From the NCBI GenBank assembly GCA_028284105.1, contig JANQSK010000446.1:1-27748 (forward strand): a stretch of DNA of 27,748 nt, given 5' to 3'. The DNA is from Anaerolineae bacterium (GTDB taxonomy: Bacteria > Chloroflexota > Anaerolineae > Promineifilales > Promineifilaceae). Positions within the stretch are counted from its first letter, which is position 1. The number at the start of each line of letters is the position of its first letter. Below, piece after piece: positions 9,460 through 19,268 of the stretch. Made by a program: the position numbers and the translations under genes. Under the pieces are notes generated by a model. That model ran no database searches. It was given only the letters and a program-made list of their open reading frames with translations, and was not told the origin of the DNA.

Positions 9460-10638
9460 GTGCGAATCGGGCTAGTTACAGGTGAATTCCCCCCTATGGA
9501 GGGGGGCGTTGGTGCATTTACAAATGAGTTAGCAAAAGCCTTAGGGGAAGCTGGGCACGATGTTTTTGTGTTAACTTCCCGATTAGCCCGACCACCCGAT
9601 CAACCTCGACAAATCTCACTTTTATCTGAACCAATCGATTTAGGTTACGCTACGTTATTGCCTATTGTTCGAAATTGGCGATGGGCAACCAATCGCGAGA
9701 TAGTTGATTGGTCAATCCGCTTCGACCTCGATGTCGTCAATATTCAATATCAAGCGGCGGCCTATGGTATGTGGTTGCCCGCCATTAATTTTGCCCCTAG
9801 AAGGTTACGCAATGTGGTGAAAACGGCCGTTACCTTCCATGATTTGCGCCACCCCTATTTTTTCCCAAAAGCTGGAAAACTTCGTGATAAAGTGGTTCAT
9901 TTGATGGCTCAACAAGCGGACGGTGTATTAACGACAAATCCCGATGATTTTCAAAAAGTGAAGGAGCTTGCCTGTGAAAAAGTCACAGAAATTCCCATTG
10001 GGAGCAATATCGCAGCGTATAAACCTAATCATATCGAAGTCGAGGAGGCCAGGTCCGAATTAGGGGTGCCTCAAAATGGGGTGCTTTTAGGTTACTTTGG
10101 CTTTTTGAATGAAACAAAAGGGGCGGAGTCACTCTTAACGGCCGTATCAAAAATGGCGCCTTCGCATCATGTGGTATTCATCGGAGGCCAACTAGGTGCA
10201 AGTGATGCGTCAAACAATGCCGCTTATTTAACCCACCTTCGCCAAATAATTCACACATTGGATATTGAAGATCGCGTTCATTGGACTGGATATCTGTCTG
10301 ATAGTCGGGTTTCAACGTATTTGTACGCAACAGATATGATGGTGATGCCTTATAAAGATGGTGCATCGCTCAGACGTGGAACGCTTATGGCTGCATTGGC
10401 ACATGGACGGCCGTTAATTTCCACGTGGCCGATTGGCCCAACCCCTTTTTTGGAGCATGGTAAAAATGTTTGGTTTGTACCGATTGATGATCCAGATGCC
10501 ATCGTAACGGCCGTAGCTAACATCAAGACAAATGGCATGCTTCATGAGAGTTTAGCTATTGGGGCCACTCAAGTTGCCCAAAACTTCACTTGGGAGTCCA
10601 TTGCAAAGAAAACGGCCGTATTTTTTGAATCATTGTGA
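9460..10638 (+). CDS. Glycosyltransferase family 4 (GT-B)
   Basis: GTG start; MRIGLVTGEFPPMEGGVGAFT, TFHDL, YFGFLNETKG, WTGYL, DMMVMPY..GASLRRGTLMAALAHGRPLI, and F(T)WESIA. Confidence 0.9.
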   Translation: MRIGLVTGEFPPMEGGVGAFTNELAKALGEAGHDVFVLTSRLARPPDQPRQISLLSEPIDLGYATLLPIVRNWRWATNREIVDWSIRFDLDVVNIQYQAAAYGMWLPAINFAPRRLRNVVKTAVTFHDLRHPYFFPKAGKLRDKVVHLMAQQADGVLTTNPDDFQKVKELACEKVTEIPIGSNIAAYKPNHIEVEEARSELGVPQNGVLLGYFGFLNETKGAESLLTAVSKMAPSHHVVFIGGQLGASDASNNAAYLTHLRQIIHTLDIEDRVHWTGYLSDSRVSTYLYATDMMVMPYKDGASLRRGTLMAALAHGRPLISTWPIGPTPFLEHGKNVWFVPIDDPDAIVTAVANIKTNGMLHESLAIGATQVAQNFTWESIAKKTAVFFESL

Positions 10639-12997: not shown

Positions 12998-15755
12998 ATT
13001 GCCCCTAGAAGTTCAAAAACAGTTAGATGAAATTGAAAAATCGATTGCTGAAACGCAAGCGCGTTTTAAAGATTTAATGTCGCCAGATGAGATTAAGCAG
13101 CTGGTTGTTAAGTTTGAAGCAAAAAGAGATAAACTGCTTGCTCAATATGGGGGACAACAGGGAAAAACGGCCGTTTTGGCCCAGCGTTTTTGGCAGCAAT
13201 ATCCTGACGTTGATCACCCAGAGATTATTCAAGCCACGACCTCTTATTTCGACTACATCAATAATCGTTTTAGCCTTCTTAACTTTCAAGGATTGGGCTT
13301 TGCCAATCAATTGCCAGGCCGATTAAAACTTCGAAATTTATATGTCCCATTAAAAGTTCGCCCTTTTTTGCCAGAGGGTGAGACATGGCCACGACAATTT
13401 GTGACTGATATTGATAATCATGAACCTGTGGAAATATTGCCTCTGTTTGATGATGAATCAGGACTGGTTATTTTAGGGGATGTTGGGGCTGGCAAGACAA
13501 CCTTTTTACAATATATTGCGCTTTCATTGGTGAATGGAGAAGATGTTCATCAGACGGTCAACGGCCGTATTCCGCTCGCAATGCCTCTCTCTGCCTATTA
13601 CGACGAGCTTGAAAATAACAACATCTCCCTTTATGACTTTTTTGTGACCTATTTTGATAATTTAGGAGGTAGTCTGCCTTTTGGGCAACTATTCAAGGAA
13701 GTTGTGGCACGTGGGAAAGCCCTCATTCTCCTAGATGGTCTTGATGAAGCGCGGGATGCACGATTAAGAAATCAGGCGGTGCAAAACATCGTTGATTTTA
13801 TTGCGTTAAATAAAGGGAACGGCAATAAATTTTTAATAACCAGTCGACTCGTTGGTTATAGGCAAGCACGCATTTTTGCTGACGGTGTTTTAGAATGCAC
13901 ATTAGCCGATATTGATGAACTGCTTGGTGGGCGTTTTATTGAACGCTGGTTGCTGTTCGTTGAACAACAAGAGGCAGATGGTGAAGCTATCAATCGAGAA
14001 AAAGAGACGCTTCGCAAGCAGATTTGGGGGAATGTGGCCCTCTCTAGGCTTGCCTCAAACCCTCTTTTGCTCACGATCATGCTAATGATGCAACGACAGG
14101 GCCTTTCCCTTCCGCATCGTCGTGTCGAGCTCTATCATCAATTTATCAATACCCTTATCAAAGATTGGAATCTAGCCCGAAATCCACGCAATATGCCAAA
14201 TACGGCCGTTTCTGATGTCCTAGAAACGATGAGGACATTAGGGCCTCTTGCGCTTTGGATGGAAGAAGACAACCCTGGTGCTGGTTTAGTGCAGCGAGAA
14301 GATTTTCGTCGCGAGCTTGTGAATGTGTTTCGACAAAGAAAAGCAGAAAATCCAACTGTTGAAGCCAATCAATTTCTAGATGACATCAAACAGTTTAGCG
14401 GAATACTTGTTGAACGTGAAGATCAAAACATTGCGTTTTTGCATCGCTCGCTTCAAGAATATTTGGCTGCCTGGGCCATAGCGCACAAAGGGCAAAATAG
14501 CGTTGAGCCTGTTGTAGAATTTATAGCTTCCCATATTATCGATAAAACTTGGTGGGAATTATTGCGGTTGTCGGTGGGCATCATTGGGATTGTGCAGCAG
14601 CGGGAAGATACGGCGGGCATTATCTTGAGCCGTGTTATGGATTCTTCTTTTGGTGAAGGAGGAATTGGATTGACCTTAGTGGGTGAAATGCTAGCTGATA
14701 TTGGTCAATCTGGTGTGACTGTTGAGGTGTACGATCGCATTCTCCGTCATTTATTCAAAGCGCTGCAGGATGAAAACGATGTCAGTGCAGATTGGCGAGT
14801 TGGAATTGGGCAAGTTATTGGCCGAATGAATAAATGGAACACAATTGTCGATGAAATTCAATTTTGTTATGTGCCAAGTAGCGATTTTTATTTGGGCGAA
14901 CAAAAATATGAACAGCTTGTGACTGTATTAGATACTCCTTATTGGCTTAGTCAGCATCTGATAACCCACAGTCAATTCTTTGAATTCGTCGAAGATGATG
15001 GCTATAAAAATCCGGAATTTTGGGTAGAAGCAGCGACCGTTTATCGCTGGCGTTCAGGTGAAGTGATGGACTGGGAGCGATTAGGGTGGCGAAAAGAACC
15101 ACATGATTATGGCTATCCATTTCATTTACCAAACCATCCAATTGTTGGCGTTTCTTATTATGAAGCACTCGCGTTTACTCGATGGTTAGAAAAACGATGG
15201 GTTGCGCGTGGATTCATTGAGCCCCATTGGCAGGTTCGATTACCAACTGAAATTCAGTGGGAGAAAGCAGCTAAAGGTGGCCTTCAACTGCCCCAATTCC
15301 CAGTTGAGGCTGATGTTCACCTGTTGATTCCCGTTTATGATGCCTTTTTTGAGCCACTTTTTGATAATTCAATGCCTAAACGGCCGTTTCCATGGGGAGA
15401 CGAACCTCCCTTAAATCATGCCAACTTTAGACACCCAAACAACCAACATTTTGATGAAAGCAGTAACTTTGGCCTTTGCTTTTCTAAGGGTAAAAGCCCT
15501 GTGGGTTGTATGGATATGAGCGGGAATGTTTGGGAATGGACGCGCTCACTATTACGGCCGTATCCATATAATCCTGACGACGGACGCGAAACCATGGATA
15601 TCCAGCTATTTCATACGCTGGCATTACGTGGTGGCGCTTTTTGGTCGCTTGAAGAACAAATACGAACCGTATCGCGCATAGGTCGTAGCCCAAATACACG
15701 TTCAGATAGTATAGGTTTTAGAGTCTGTGTGATGGTTCCCAATCCCCCGAGATGA
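12990..15755 (+). CDS. NACHT NTPase - FGE-sulfatase (SUMF1-like) domain protein with an N-terminal coiled coil
   Basis: Walker A GDVGAGKT, Walker B LILLDGLDE, ITSR, LASNPLLLT, FLHRSLQEYLAA. FGE motifs: HPIVGVSYYEALAF, RLPTEIQWEKAA, DMSGNVWEWT, RGGAF, and IGFR. Start ATG 12990 overlaps the upstream stop (ATGAGTGA). Confidence 0.9.
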   Translation: MSELPLEVQKQLDEIEKSIAETQARFKDLMSPDEIKQLVVKFEAKRDKLLAQYGGQQGKTAVLAQRFWQQYPDVDHPEIIQATTSYFDYINNRFSLLNFQGLGFANQLPGRLKLRNLYVPLKVRPFLPEGETWPRQFVTDIDNHEPVEILPLFDDESGLVILGDVGAGKTTFLQYIALSLVNGEDVHQTVNGRIPLAMPLSAYYDELENNNISLYDFFVTYFDNLGGSLPFGQLFKEVVARGKALILLDGLDEARDARLRNQAVQNIVDFIALNKGNGNKFLITSRLVGYRQARIFADGVLECTLADIDELLGGRFIERWLLFVEQQEADGEAINREKETLRKQIWGNVALSRLASNPLLLTIMLMMQRQGLSLPHRRVELYHQFINTLIKDWNLARNPRNMPNTAVSDVLETMRTLGPLALWMEEDNPGAGLVQREDFRRELVNVFRQRKAENPTVEANQFLDDIKQFSGILVEREDQNIAFLHRSLQEYLAAWAIAHKGQNSVEPVVEFIASHIIDKTWWELLRLSVGIIGIVQQREDTAGIILSRVMDSSFGEGGIGLTLVGEMLADIGQSGVTVEVYDRILRHLFKALQDENDVSADWRVGIGQVIGRMNKWNTIVDEIQFCYVPSSDFYLGEQKYEQLVTVLDTPYWLSQHLITHSQFFEFVEDDGYKNPEFWVEAATVYRWRSGEVMDWERLGWRKEPHDYGYPFHLPNHPIVGVSYYEALAFTRWLEKRWVARGFIEPHWQVRLPTEIQWEKAAKGGLQLPQFPVEADVHLLIPVYDAFFEPLFDNSMPKRPFPWGDEPPLNHANFRHPNNQHFDESSNFGLCFSKGKSPVGCMDMSGNVWEWTRSLLRPYPYNPDDGRETMDIQLFHTLALRGGAFWSLEEQIRTVSRIGRSPNTRSDSIGFRVCVMVPNPPR

Positions 15756-16650: not shown

Positions 16651-17553
16651 ATGAAAAATCGAATACAAGTAGTGGGGTTGGCCGCCATCATTGTTCCCTT
16701 TTTAATCGGTTGTGGACTTCAAGCAGTTGAAGAGCCTTCCGCACCAATTGAAGCAGTACCAATTGAATTGGAAGAGGATACAGATACAGCAGAAGCAGAG
16801 GTTGAAGAAGCTGTTGTTGAAGAAGAATCAGAACCAGAAGCAGAAGAGGTGATGGAAGAGCCCACACCTGAACCGGTTGAAGAACCAACGGCAGAACCTG
16901 TTGAGGAACCCACTGAAGAAGCCATGGAAGAGCCCACACCTGAACCGGTCGAAGAACCAACAGCAGAGCCTGTTGAAGAACCCACATCTGAACCCGTTGA
17001 AGAACCTGAAGCAGCCATTACCATATTTCAAATTTCTCAAGATGAGTCAAATGTTCGCTTTGAACTCGATGAGGACTTAGCAGGGAATCGCATAACAGTG
17101 GTTGGTGAAACAGATCAAGTTGCTGGGGAACTGGCTGTAGATTATAGTGATTTATCGTCAGCACAGGTGGGTGTGATTCAAATTAATGCGCGTACGCTTG
17201 TAACAGATAACGAATTCCGAAATAGGGCTATTAACAATCGTATTCTTGATACAGGTACATTTGAGTTTATTACATTTACACCATCAGCCGTTGAAGGATT
17301 GGATGGGGCAATCGCAGTTGGTGAAACTGTAGATTTTACTTTGGTCGGCTCTCTCACTGTTCGTGATATTTCACAAGATGTGACATTTACCGTGACAGCA
17401 ACGGCCGTTTCTGATACGCAAATCACAGGCAGCGCAAGCACCATCATTTTGCTTGAAGATTATGAAATTACCATTCCCCAGGTGCCTAATGTTGCTAACA
17501 TTGAAGAAGAAGTAGAACTCTATATTGATTTCACTGCGAATGCGGTACAATAA
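16651..17553 (+). CDS. YceI-family (polyisoprenoid-binding) lipoprotein with a long acidic Pro/Glu linker
   Basis: Signal peptide with lipobox FLIGC; E/P-rich linker; YceI-like domain ESNVRF...GETDQVAGEL...INARTLVTDNEFRNRAI...GSLTVRDISQDVTF. AGGAG SD. Confidence 0.85.
   Translation: MKNRIQVVGLAAIIVPFLIGCGLQAVEEPSAPIEAVPIELEEDTDTAEAEVEEAVVEEESEPEAEEVMEEPTPEPVEEPTAEPVEEPTEEAMEEPTPEPVEEPTAEPVEEPTSEPVEEPEAAITIFQISQDESNVRFELDEDLAGNRITVVGETDQVAGELAVDYSDLSSAQVGVIQINARTLVTDNEFRNRAINNRILDTGTFEFITFTPSAVEGLDGAIAVGETVDFTLVGSLTVRDISQDVTFTVTATAVSDTQITGSASTIILLEDYEITIPQVPNVANIEEEVELYIDFTANAVQ
16843..17007 (+). repeat. Intragenic tandem repeat: two 72-bp units (16843-16914, 16915-16986) built from about 24-bp EPVEEPT subunits, plus a partial unit
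   Basis: EEVMEEPTPEPVEEPTAEPVEEPT / EEAMEEPTPEPVEEPTAEPVEEPT / SEPVEEP. The DNA units differ mostly at synonymous positions. Confidence 0.92.
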
Positions 17554-17625
17554 TTAATACAGAGATAGACTAAAATTTGAGAAAGGTCACAATTATTTAT
17601 TGTGGCCTTTCTTTTTGGATTTCAT

Positions 17626-17784
17626 ATGGAAGAAACAACCCTCGTCATCATTTCTATTATTTTGTTGCCTATATTGGCTTTTCTGCCTGGAATAATTGGG
17701 CCTTGGGAACTGTGGCACAGCATGGTATTGATGTTTGTGTTGGGATTCGGTGGTTTGTTTTATCAGTGGTCTCAAAACAAATAA
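17626..17784 (+). CDS. Candidate small two-TM membrane protein (52 aa; alternative GTG start at 17602)
   Basis: Two hydrophobic segments (TLVIISIILLPILAFLPGII and MVLMFVLGFGGLFY) joined by GPW. The SD is weak. Confidence 0.45.
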   Translation: MEETTLVIISIILLPILAFLPGIIGPWELWHSMVLMFVLGFGGLFYQWSQNK

Positions 17785-17875: not shown

Positions 17876-18316
17876 GTGAAGAAAATGAGCAGATTGATTA
17901 AAGCAAAAGTTTTGTGGTTTGTGAATATTGCCTTATTAACGGCCGTTTTTGCATTTACCATTACACCGCTTTTAGGCATCAATCTTGCGATTTATTCCCC
18001 AACCCACACCCATATTTACTTTGGTGATGTTGATCTAGAGCACGAGCATCATGATGGTCATGACCATTCTCATAAAGTCGATGTGAAGAAAATGTCGCAG
18101 GTTGAGCTTTTTCAGTTTTTTAATGAATCGATTGCTTTTCTAACGACCAAAGATGTTGGGAATTTAGGCTTGTTTTATATCGCGTTGATGATGCTAAATG
18201 CGTCTCTGCTCACATTTGCATCTCAGCTTAACCTGCTGCGATGGTCACCTGATGAACAATCTGTTCAGTTATTATTTACCCCTCCTGTATCACCTCCCCC
18301 TCGCTCCTTGTCCTAA
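17876..18316 (+). CDS. His-rich membrane/exported protein with C-terminal polyproline (PPVSPPPR); candidate regulatory leader ORF
   Basis: Basic then hydrophobic N-terminus, PTHTH...HEHHDGHDHSH, a second hydrophobic segment, and PPVSPPPRSLS-stop. No Cys in the protein. Confidence 0.75.
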   Translation: MKKMSRLIKAKVLWFVNIALLTAVFAFTITPLLGINLAIYSPTHTHIYFGDVDLEHEHHDGHDHSHKVDVKKMSQVELFQFFNESIAFLTTKDVGNLGLFYIALMMLNASLLTFASQLNLLRWSPDEQSVQLLFTPPVSPPPRSLS

Positions 18317-18322
18317 TCTGCA

Positions 18323-18377
18323 AATATTTGAGATCGCACGATTGGCCTTGAAAAAGTCTTTGTAAATCTCAAATATT
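18323..18377. other. Perfect 12-bp inverted repeat (AATATTTGAGAT / ATCTCAAATATT) with a 31-nt loop
   Basis: Arms at 18323-18334 and 18366-18377, starting 6 nt after the stop of the His-rich ORF. No U-tract follows, so it is not a classic intrinsic terminator. Confidence 0.7.
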
Positions 18378-18476
18378 GATGATGGGAGAAATTAGTTTTT
18401 GATAATGATGTCTTCCATACCCACAAACAGAATCTTATAAATATTAATAACAATAAGAGGCGATAGCACTGTTCTG

Positions 18477-18591
18477 TTCAGTGTTCCGAAGTTTCTAAAT
18501 TGAAAAACATTTTAGCAAAAGCTTTGGAACCTCGATGAAACGAAATTTAAAGCTGTCATTTTATTCAAAACAGGAACTTCGTTTCACTTAA
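18477..18591. mobile_element. 115-bp MITE-like element, copy B (inverted relative to copy A)
   Basis: The reverse complement aligns to 54-169: the first 27 nt are identical, and 88/97 positions match outside an 18-19 nt variable middle. One terminal TTAA is changed to TTCA. Confidence 0.7.
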
Positions 18592-18649
18592 ATGCCATGT
18601 TAAACGGCCGTTATTTGCTATCGTCTATGTAAATGATTTAGGACATAAA

Positions 18650-19219
18650 ATGCAAAATTCAAAAAAATATCTACTGATTACCTTACTTTTTTCAATGATC
18701 TTCTTTGTCGCCGCGTGCTCTTCAGCAGGTGGTAGCGAACCTGATGCGACTGAATCTATGGAAGAGATGGAAGAAATGGAAGAGATGGAACATGATGACG
18801 AATCCATGGAAGGAATGGAGCACGACGACGAATCTATGGAAGAAATGGAGCATTCGGATGGAGATGATCATTCAGATCACTCAGATCATTCAGATCACGA
18901 CCATGAAGATTCAGCTCGAATCATGAATGAAGGTGCCACAATTAATATCATGTCCCCAGCAACGGGTGATACATTTGCCTTTGGTGAACAAGTTCTGATT
19001 GAGGTTGAAGTAGAAAACTTTGAACTAGGCGCTGATGGCAATCATTGGCATGTGTATGTTGATGGCTCATCATGGGGAATGGTCTTAGGTGGCAATTTGG
19101 ATCAACCATTGGTGGGTCTAGAGCCTGGTCAACACATGATCGAAACATATTTAGCCAATGGTGATCATGAAGAGCTTATGCAAGGTTCTTCAATTATGAT
19201 CGTCGTAGAAGATCAATAA
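18650..19219 (+). CDS. Met/His-rich lipoprotein with a C-terminal beta-rich (DUF4399/DUF6130-like) domain; putative metal (Cu/Ni/Zn) binding
   Basis: Lipobox VAAC; MEEMEEMEEMEHDDESMEGMEHDDESMEEMEH...DHSDHSDHSDHDHED; C-terminal NHWHVYVDG...LEPGQH...LANGDH. The family label is from recall. Confidence 0.8.
   Translation: MQNSKKYLLITLLFSMIFFVAACSSAGGSEPDATESMEEMEEMEEMEHDDESMEGMEHDDESMEEMEHSDGDDHSDHSDHSDHDHEDSARIMNEGATINIMSPATGDTFAFGEQVLIEVEVENFELGADGNHWHVYVDGSSWGMVLGGNLDQPLVGLEPGQHMIETYLANGDHEELMQGSSIMIVVEDQ
18758..18910 (+). repeat. Intragenic microrepeats: 9-nt MEE x3, 30-nt MEHDDESME(G/E) x2 (18785-18814, 18815-18844), 9-nt DHS x3
   Basis: Directly visible tandem units at the DNA level. Confidence 0.9.
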
Positions 19220-19234
19220 GAACAGACAGTTAAT

Positions 19235-19266
19235 CCCCATTGGGTGAGAGAACTTGCTCAATGGGG
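19235..19266. terminator. Hairpin between convergent genes, probably a bidirectional terminator
   Basis: CCCCATTGGGTGAG-AGAA-CTTGCTCAATGGGG forms a 14-bp stem with G:U pairs. It lies between the lipoprotein stop (19219) and the hydA stop (19269). Confidence 0.7.
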
Positions 19267-19268
19267 GC

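Follow-up and report, generated by a model that had tools for sequence, protein, structure and literature searches.

We have analysed a stretch of 27,748 nucleotides (nt) from an Anaerolineae bacterium (Chloroflexota, Promineifilaceae; assembly GCA_028284105.1, contig JANQSK010000446.1, positions 1 to 27,748, forward strand), referred to below as the window. It carries a small open reading frame (ORF) at 17876-18316, ahead of the gene for a lipoprotein rich in Met and His. We propose that this ORF is a cis-acting leader of the CutF/CruR type, devoid of Cys and relying on His, which would probably sense copper and arrest its own ribosome; we rate the chances of this assignment as about even. 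It was favoured because the invariant residues of a family with a mean identity of 27% are just three His and a Pro-Pro pair, and because the ORF constantly precedes varied copper genes and is optional in otherwise identical operons.

The ORF and the elements of its product are given below, with residues numbered according to the 146-residue form of the protein.

17876-18316, + strand: the ORF, of 146 amino acids (aa) from the GTG start at 17876 or 143 aa from an in-frame ATG at 17885.
17909-17980, + strand: N-terminal hydrophobic segment V12-I35 (24 residues; Kyte-Doolittle 19-mer maximum of 2.1), preceded by a basic N-terminus.
18005-18073, + strand: His cluster, from the ORF translation and the alignment, made of PTHTH (P42-H46, continuing I-Y-F-G) and HEHHDGHDHSH (H56-H66).
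18164-18238, + strand: second hydrophobic helix L97-L121, a putative second transmembrane segment according to AlphaFold2 and hydrophobicity.
18281-18304, + strand: Pro-rich tail PPVSPPPR (P136-R143), the proposed arrest motif, followed by S-L-S and the TAA stop codon (18314-18316).
18296-18301 and 18302-18304, + strand: codons of P141-P142 and of R143, respectively, within the Pro-rich tail.

The 143-aa form initiated at the ATG is the version recorded in the protein collection. The translation bore out the features first singled out by an earlier inspection of the letters (the sequence-only reading), namely the N-terminal hydrophobic segment, the His cluster and a PPVSPPPR that ends three codons short of the stop. 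The secreted, CutF/CruR-like architecture that it had inferred stood only in part: the export-type segment is present, but it is probably an uncleaved signal anchor with an N-in orientation, and there is a second helix, both unlike the secreted CutF. In the alignment of 29 family members described below, a small-x-small or other signal-peptidase cleavage site was not evident after this segment, and a basic N-terminus and a hydrophobic N-terminal helix (Kyte-Doolittle values of 1.5-2.5) were present in all members. The His cluster begins about 8 residues past the anchor and is therefore predicted to face outward. In the subfamily of the window, the ORF product may be a two-pass membrane protein.

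An AlphaFold2 model computed from the 29-sequence alignment had a mean predicted local distance difference test (pLDDT) score of 74 and a predicted template modelling (pTM) score of 0.35. In the numbering of the 143-aa form, it placed helices at residues 3-30, 72-82 and 92-118. The confidence was high for the first of these helices (pLDDT 85-92) and for the last 13 residues (about 86), and low for the His region.

The ORF product belongs to an unnamed family of proteins of about 120-175 aa, of which we have collected 29 full-length relatives, nearly all of them from one Chloroflexota family. On sequence grounds, the ORF is a genuine gene and not a chance open frame. A phmmer search of 1.8 billion representative proteins returned 12 matches at E ≤ 0.001, two long ones being apparently spurious, and a word-indexed profile search of 5.8 billion proteins added a few others, whose sole designation was “Chloroflexota bacterium” or “Candidatus Promineifilaceae bacterium.” At the genome level, profile searches detected the gene in 21 of the 160 genomes of the window's GTDB family (15 of 36 genera), as a single copy in each, and in only 4 of the 401 genomes sampled across the class. 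Searches of Pfam, NCBIfam and PDB sequences with the ORF or its profile gave no significant match. The best DNA-run match to the locus was a coral metagenome, and a search for RNA sequencing runs covering the locus retrieved DNA runs only.

Alignment of the 29 sequences (mean column identity of 27%) left only H44, H46, H58, P141 and P142 invariant, with H56 and G50 conserved in at least 90% of the members; a smaller alignment agreed on the conserved residues. The consensus of the front motif was [FY]-A-A-x-Q-P-x-H-x-H-[IL]-Y-[LF]-G-x-[VI]-[DN]-x-x-H-H and that of the tail was [ILV]-F-[LI]-P-P-[LP]-[DE]-K-P-P-R, to which PPVSPPPR-SLS corresponds in the window. The top-residue frequency was 0.63 for the His motif and 0.58 for the tail, and fell to 0.31 in the 55-column linker, which holds a semi-conserved I-A-F-L-P-x-x-D motif. 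Pro-Pro is followed by Arg in 24 of the 29 members, and the stop codon lies 0-5 residues past PPx in 26 of them, the other three having 7, 9 and 15 residues. There was no complete homologue without a Pro-Pro tail among the 29. The distance from HxH to PP varied between 75 and 99 residues, with a median of 92.

The DNA encoding the tail motif makes use of all four third bases for Pro and of CGC, CGT and CGA for Arg. Because the Pro and Arg codons vary synonymously, the tail is under selection at the peptide level. We have also considered that the Pro-Pro codons could be kept as an RNA word complementary to the Shine-Dalgarno (SD) sequence (CCUCC). This was ruled out, as all synonymous codons occur and recoded tails pair equally well. 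The residue preceding Pro-Pro is K, P, E, H or Q, with D or E before it, and in the window it is a Pro that completes the run P140-P141-P142. Such a PPP run is a classical stall site whose relief depends on elongation factor P (EF-P). The genome harbours an EF-P gene (efp, 198 bits, above the cut-off), and Rho is encoded as well.

The distribution of the second hydrophobic helix is informative about where the tail would act. This helix, defined as a hydrophobic 19-mer between the two motifs with a Kyte-Doolittle mean of at least 1.6, was found in 18 of the 29 members, including that of the window, and was clearly absent (mean below 1.0) in 5. Since the anchor would be N-in, the tail of the mature protein would be cytoplasmic in members having the second helix and would lie outside in those devoid of it. 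During decoding of Pro-Pro, the geometry would be equal in both groups, with the anchor in the membrane, the His loop outside and the remainder of the chain in the translocon and the ribosome tunnel. Pro-Pro is invariant despite the differing final compartment; thus, a role inside the ribosome would explain it better than a role in the mature protein, with the reservation that this topology argument rests on a crude hydrophobicity measure.

The gene following the ORF in the window is as follows.

18650-19219, + strand: gene for a lipoprotein (lipobox ..VAAC) with a repeat arm of Met, His and acidic residues and an immunoglobulin (Ig)-like domain bearing HWHVYVDG; the putative regulated copper-binding protein.

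The ORF had been described as lying immediately upstream of this gene. This is correct as to gene order, with no ORF in between, but the two are 333 nt apart. All 22 loci with adequate downstream sequence showed the same arrangement, in which the next gene is on the same strand, encodes an exported protein, has its own SD and is separated from the ORF by a gap of 57-333 nt (median of about 150 nt). The types of downstream gene were the following.

Met/His lipoprotein as in the window, assigned by motif: 7 of the 22 loci, and also L032 and L034, which are metagenome contigs.
C-terminally anchored Ig-like protein with a signal peptide and an A-H-G-H mature N-terminus (“AHGH,” assigned by motif), in most cases with CopC (PF04234) as the next gene: 11 loci.
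SCO1/SenC followed by PCuAC, assigned by Pfam: 2 loci.
CtaG/Cox11-like protein (assigned by Pfam), then a protein recognised only by its SCO1-like C-P-x-x-C-P motif: 1 locus.
PepSY_TM protein, assigned by Pfam: 1 locus.

All these neighbours are copper-handling contexts; therefore, copper is likely to be the metal concerned, rather than Ni, Zn or Co. Of the candidates that the sequence-only reading had offered (Ni, Zn, Co or Cu(II)), copper is thus the one that the CopC, SCO1, PCuAC, CtaG/Cox11-like, PepSY_TM and Met/His lipoprotein neighbours retain, and they argue against the other three. Its expectation that homologues would share the His motif, the Pro-rich tail and a downstream gene for a metal-binding protein was borne out: they keep the His motif and a stop-proximal Pro-Pro(-Arg) tail, and the gene that follows encodes an exported metal protein.

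The lipoprotein family was present in full length in about 58 of the 160 genomes, versus 21 for the ORF, and about 43 of these 58 had no detectable relative of the ORF. The 10 ORF-less loci that were sampled all had a gene for an “A-H-x-R...” Ig-like protein directly before the lipoprotein gene (at most 123 nt away). In three loci, the ORF sits between those two genes, with gaps of 1-21 nt to the first and of 218-283 nt to the second. Operons thus occur with and without the ORF and the downstream types vary, which suggests that the ORF and its long spacer are an add-on and not an obligate partner.

We have then considered how the ORF could be coupled to the downstream gene. The region 18290-18670 of the window was folded, and the elements of the predicted minimum free energy (MFE) structure and of the spacer are listed here.

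18309-18316, + strand: last codons and TAA stop, TGTCCTAA (T-G-T-C-C-T-A-A), forming the 5' arm of an 8-bp helix in the MFE fold.
18638-18645, + strand: TTAGGACA (T-T-A-G-G-A-C-A), which includes the lipoprotein SD AGGA and forms the 3' arm of this long-range helix in the MFE fold.
18323-18377, + strand: predicted 12-bp hairpin (18323-18334 with 18366-18377), starting 7 nt past the stop.
18477-18591, no strand assigned: element resembling a miniature inverted-repeat transposable element (MITE), of about 115 nt, about 90% identical to 54-169 in inverted orientation; it takes up about a third of the 333-nt spacer.

The MITE-like element is self-folding, and a 10-bp helix (18458-18467 with 18617-18626) closes it off. 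The helix between 18309-18316 and 18638-18645 survived deletion of the element in silico. The energy of the duplex between the stop region and the SD ranked in the best 0.9% of control windows, and when the footprint of a ribosome stalled at Pro-Pro was forced to be unpaired, the unpaired probability of the SD rose from 0.13 to 0.66. A terminator-like site was not found between the ORF and the lipoprotein gene of the window. Promoter-like hexamers occur in its spacer at chance frequency, which is neither for nor against an internal promoter.

Across the family, the complementarity between the ORF end (Pro-Pro codons to 20 nt past the stop) and the SD ranked among the top 5% of control windows from its own locus in 7 of the 22 loci and among the top 10% in 9 of them; the corresponding combined p-value is overstated, because the loci are related. 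A uniform spacer structure or terminator was sought across the loci and not found. SD pairing and spacer structure are thus mixed across the family, indicating that the read-out device is not conserved. The read-out may consist of SD unmasking in some loci and of something else, such as Rho, in others.

According to the mechanism that we propose, the basic N-terminus and the first hydrophobic helix would bring the nascent chain to the Sec translocon, and the loop with the HxH-x-Y-x-G...HxH site would be threaded to the outer face of the membrane. Peptide-bond formation would be slow at the invariant Pro-Pro(-Arg), which follows the His site by 75-99 residues and precedes the stop by 0-5 codons. 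The length of the pause would be set by the copper occupancy of the exported His site, with metal-dependent folding or tethering altering the pulling force on the chain. In the window, the paused ribosome would cover 18309-18316 and open the helix that masks the SD of the Met/His lipoprotein gene, and at other loci the read-out may operate via a different spacer structure or Rho. That the loop is exported and binds copper, that the ribosome arrests and that this governs downstream expression are all predictions. Regarding the sign of regulation, the downstream genes mostly seem to serve the acquisition or delivery of copper; for this reason we lean slightly toward a CruR-like scheme in which copper would release the arrest and turn off genes of the acquisition type, a CutF-like induction being equally possible. 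We further suggest, tentatively, that the family represents Cys-free nascent-chain sensors in which an outward His triad at a signal anchor sets the dwell time at x-P-P-R, and in which ORF and spacer constitute a portable cassette, used with at least five kinds of copper genes, also between two genes of an operon otherwise devoid of it, and either independent of DUF2946 or very remotely related to it.

Several observations weigh against a copper-sensing leader. The spacing between HxH and PP is longer and looser than the 45 ± 2 residues of DUF2946. Three consecutive Pro ending at the invariant pair occur in only 9 of the 29 members (8 with Pro at -1; L013 has it at +2), most members having only the di-proline of K/Q/H/E-P-P-R. 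Native tails paired with the SD no better than synonymous recodings (mean rank of 0.43; 0.1 or less in 4 of the 22 loci), and the median SD accessibility across the family barely shifted with a modelled stalled ribosome (from 0.44 to 0.47). The anti-SD complement is absent in the sister species. The spacer structure is heterogeneous, with z-scores ranging from +0.7 to -6.2 and below -2 in only 9 of the 22 loci. The 333-nt MITE-bearing spacer of the window could hold a promoter of its own, and at locus L011 the spacer contains four GTGAC-[AT]-GTCAC palindromes, of which three belong to a tandem 17-nt repeat that closely precedes the lipoprotein SD; these could be an operator or a repeat element, arguing for separate transcriptional control there. 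Finally, the two long helices and the confident C-terminal tail (about 86) of the AlphaFold2 model would also suit a folded, stable membrane protein.

Such a protein would be a membrane-anchored, one- or two-pass copper-binding accessory factor without any translation control, in which Pro-Pro-Arg is a structural or interaction motif. It could, for example, be a surface His-site receiving copper or handing it over for YcnI-like, CopC, SCO1 or lipoprotein systems. To this explanation we assign a real, if minority, chance. Besides the modelled helices and confidently placed tail, it would accommodate the semi-conserved I-A-F-L-P-x-x-D motif of the linker, the constant location of the gene inside copper gene clusters, the 1-21 nt coupling to the preceding gene in three loci, which is like that of operon subunits, and the lack of conservation of SD masking. 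It sits less well with the five neighbour types and with operons that work without the ORF in most genomes. The spacer of 57-333 nt that always follows the ORF, with never a tightly coupled next gene, the differing compartment of the tail and the poor conservation of the linker also argue against it. Predicting a complex between the ORF product and the mature lipoprotein provided neither support nor counter-evidence, and was used neither way.

An arrest or attenuation leader need not sense a metal. Sec/YidC monitors are generally built from an N-terminal anchor and a C-terminal Pro motif (PMC10987492), and the ORF could likewise monitor membrane insertion or secretion (as MifM, SecM and VemP) or, in a genome that does encode EF-P, the status of this factor, the His being otherwise used. 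We regard this as unlikely: the downstream genes are copper-handling ones and not Sec or YidC components, and, apart from Pro-Pro, invariance is restricted to three His arranged much like a metal site. The spacer of 333 nt with its mobile element, together with the sister species lacking the anti-SD complement, would also be compatible with a fortuitous resemblance, in which an unrelated small membrane protein happens to precede a lipoprotein gene driven by its own promoter in the MITE-bearing spacer. The invariance of both motifs across the family and the upstream position in 22 of 22 loci would be hard to get by chance, and we hold this explanation to be very improbable.

The remaining features around the ORF in the window are these.

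16651-17553, + strand: gene for a YceI-domain lipoprotein, upstream of the ORF.
17579-17613: terminator-like hairpin between the YceI gene and the small two-helix gene.
17626-17784, + strand: gene for a small two-helix membrane protein of 52 aa from its ATG, without a Pfam match.
19234-19267, + strand: terminator-like hairpin ending the unit.
1121-1130, 9822-9831, 15379-15388, 17941-17948 and 18604-18611: examples of the palindrome ACGGCCGT, also found in the spacers of related loci.

The order YceI lipoprotein, small two-helix protein, ORF and lipoprotein is kept in the closest subfamily. The product of 17626-17784 has a highly conserved core, L-L-P-I-L-A-F-L-P-G...G-P-W-E-L-W-H-S-M, and at least four related species have its gene flanked by the YceI gene and the ORF. 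The presence of ACGGCCGT in several spacers had made it a candidate operator, which was dropped since the palindrome is repeated genome-wide, in genes and spacers alike. It occurs 39 times in the 27.7 kb (often as AACGGCCGTT), versus 0.23 expected from base composition, and seems to be a highly iterated palindrome of the HIP1 type known from cyanobacteria.

The “AHGH” family (about 190-225 aa) is widespread in Chloroflexota; its members have a signal peptide, show A-H-G-H or A-H-x-R at the mature N-terminus, carry the motif G-x-Y-x-x-x-x-G-[FW]-x-x-E-P and an Ig-like body, and are anchored C-terminally in the membrane. CopC often follows. Its genes are downstream of the ORF at L015, L017, L019, L020, L029 and L031, and upstream of the lipoprotein gene at L011, L023, L024 and L035-L044. 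An identification of these proteins as YcnI was not upheld by sequence, as no Pfam, NCBIfam or PDB sequence match was obtained, and the likeness is architectural only. The Ig-like domain with H-W-H-x-Y-x-D-G is also found as tandem repeats in giant open frames (1100-2250 aa) of several genomes of the family. Divergently oriented genes for winged-helix regulators adjoin the ORF at L031 (MarR-type) and L029 (DeoR/ArsR/MarR-like helix-turn-helix); therefore, transcriptional control may coexist with any leader function.

Copper-sensing arrest leaders are a recent subject (CruR in 2022, CutF in 2023-2025 and the RAPP/RGPP upstream ORFs in 2025), and they have so far been defined by Cys motifs, RAPP-type tails or the DUF2946 model. 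The present family escapes all three definitions, yet has the same anatomy and the same classes of downstream genes. If our reading is true, the principle would not be bound to thiol chemistry, which is relevant to the sensing of Cu(II) or to an oxidising extracytoplasmic space, and transmembrane translational sensing would be extended to histidine chemistry. Nor would it be bound to Proteobacteria or Actinomycetota, but would reach Chloroflexota, a phylum not yet connected with the mechanism, and motif-based screens would be overlooking whole families. If, instead, the product were the accessory protein, it would be a new small His-site copper-binding membrane protein of Chloroflexota, of narrower interest. 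The natural pairs of operons with and without the ORF and the five invariant residues offer a compact basis for a direct test.

Among the known systems, CutF of Rhodobacter capsulatus (cutFOG) is a protein of 118 aa whose Sec signal can be cleaved, whose CxxxC motif is exported and whose tail reads P109-EPEGPPPRL-118 (PMC9973294, bioRxiv 10.1101/2025.02.05.636593), the PPPR ending being as the sequence-only reading had given it. Copper control is lost when its PPP is changed to PAP, the stall is counteracted by EF-P and the cutO SD is masked by a stem-loop (bioRxiv 10.1101/2025.02.05.636593, PMC9973294); the CutF product is rapidly degraded. Like cutF, the present ORF is small, encodes a putative N-terminal export signal, a predicted exported metal motif and a P-x-x-P-P-P-R tail one to a few codons before the stop, and is found upstream of the gene for an exported copper protein in a genome with EF-P. 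The predicted helix of the window would likewise mask the downstream SD within reach of a ribosome at the ORF end. Unlike CutF, the ORF product has no Cys and would use His ligands (HxH...HxH), its anchor probably stays uncleaved, and many members have a second hydrophobic helix. The spacing is 75-99 aa, versus about 45-50 aa in CutF as estimated from its published residue numbers (the value is not stated in the paper), the spacer of 57-333 nt is without a conserved stem-loop, and the host belongs to Chloroflexota and not to Proteobacteria.

CruR (Bp2923) of Bordetella pertussis, a DUF2946 (PF11162) protein, combines CXXC and RAPP at a fixed spacing of 45 residues, with a 162-nt spacer and a Rho-dependent read-out (PMC9426467), and it senses cytoplasmic copper independently of its signal peptide and of EF-P (PMC9426467). 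The likeness that we propose is that the nascent product of an upstream ORF senses copper and that a C-terminal Pro motif arrests the ribosome. Both have a long intergenic region before a copper gene (162 nt and an acquisition gene in the case of CruR) and Rho is encoded here too. In contrast to CruR, the present family has neither a conserved Cys nor RAPP, its spacing is longer and not fixed, and its His site is predicted to lie on the outer side.

A 2025 survey of RAPP/RGPP upstream ORFs found many that span the membrane, some with conserved His, upstream of YcnI, PCuAC and PepSY genes, and several of them arrest in vitro (PMC12992588). As in these, for instance Streptomyces lividans SLIV_18480 (PMC12992588), the present family consists of small membrane proteins with a conserved site (His here, His or Cys there) and a C-terminal Pro-Pro, encoded upstream of the same classes of copper genes. 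The difference lies in the motif, x-P-P-R (consensus D-K-P-P-R) and not R-[AG]-P-P, as well as in the sequence family and the phylum. The R-[AG]-P-P motif (PMC12992588, PMC10951233) was absent in all 29 members, and a RAPP/RGPP screen would miss the x-P-P-R family for that reason. Periplasmic proteins of the CzcI/CopL type are likewise small, exported, His-rich and encoded ahead of metal-resistance genes, but the Pro tail present here is absent in CzcI (PMC9973294), and no hidden Markov model match was obtained.

Membership in DUF2946 was evaluated as well. The ORF of the window gave no match to PF11162 (gathering score of 23.7 bits) at E values up to 10, and the genome as a whole gave none at E ≤ 1. 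Sub-threshold matches were seen in 2 of 13 relatives (15.2 and 17.0 bits), covering only the N-terminal anchor and the His region (model positions 4-59). Neighbours by ESM Atlas features include CzcI and DUF2946 clusters with low shared-feature counts, which we take as a lead only. Cys is absent from the ORF product of the window, and the 29-sequence alignment has no conserved Cys column. Thus, of the hallmarks examined, the family has the CutF-type Pro tail, whereas the gathering score, a Cys motif (CXXC/CxxxC), RAPP and the 45 ± 2 spacing are lacking. Since the score, the conserved Cys, R-[AG]-P-P and the spacing all fail, we place the family outside DUF2946. This fits the idea of a Cys-free, His-based analogue in Chloroflexota with which the sequence-only reading had begun, and we file the family as one that, to judge by its conserved features, would work like CutF and CruR without being a DUF2946 member.

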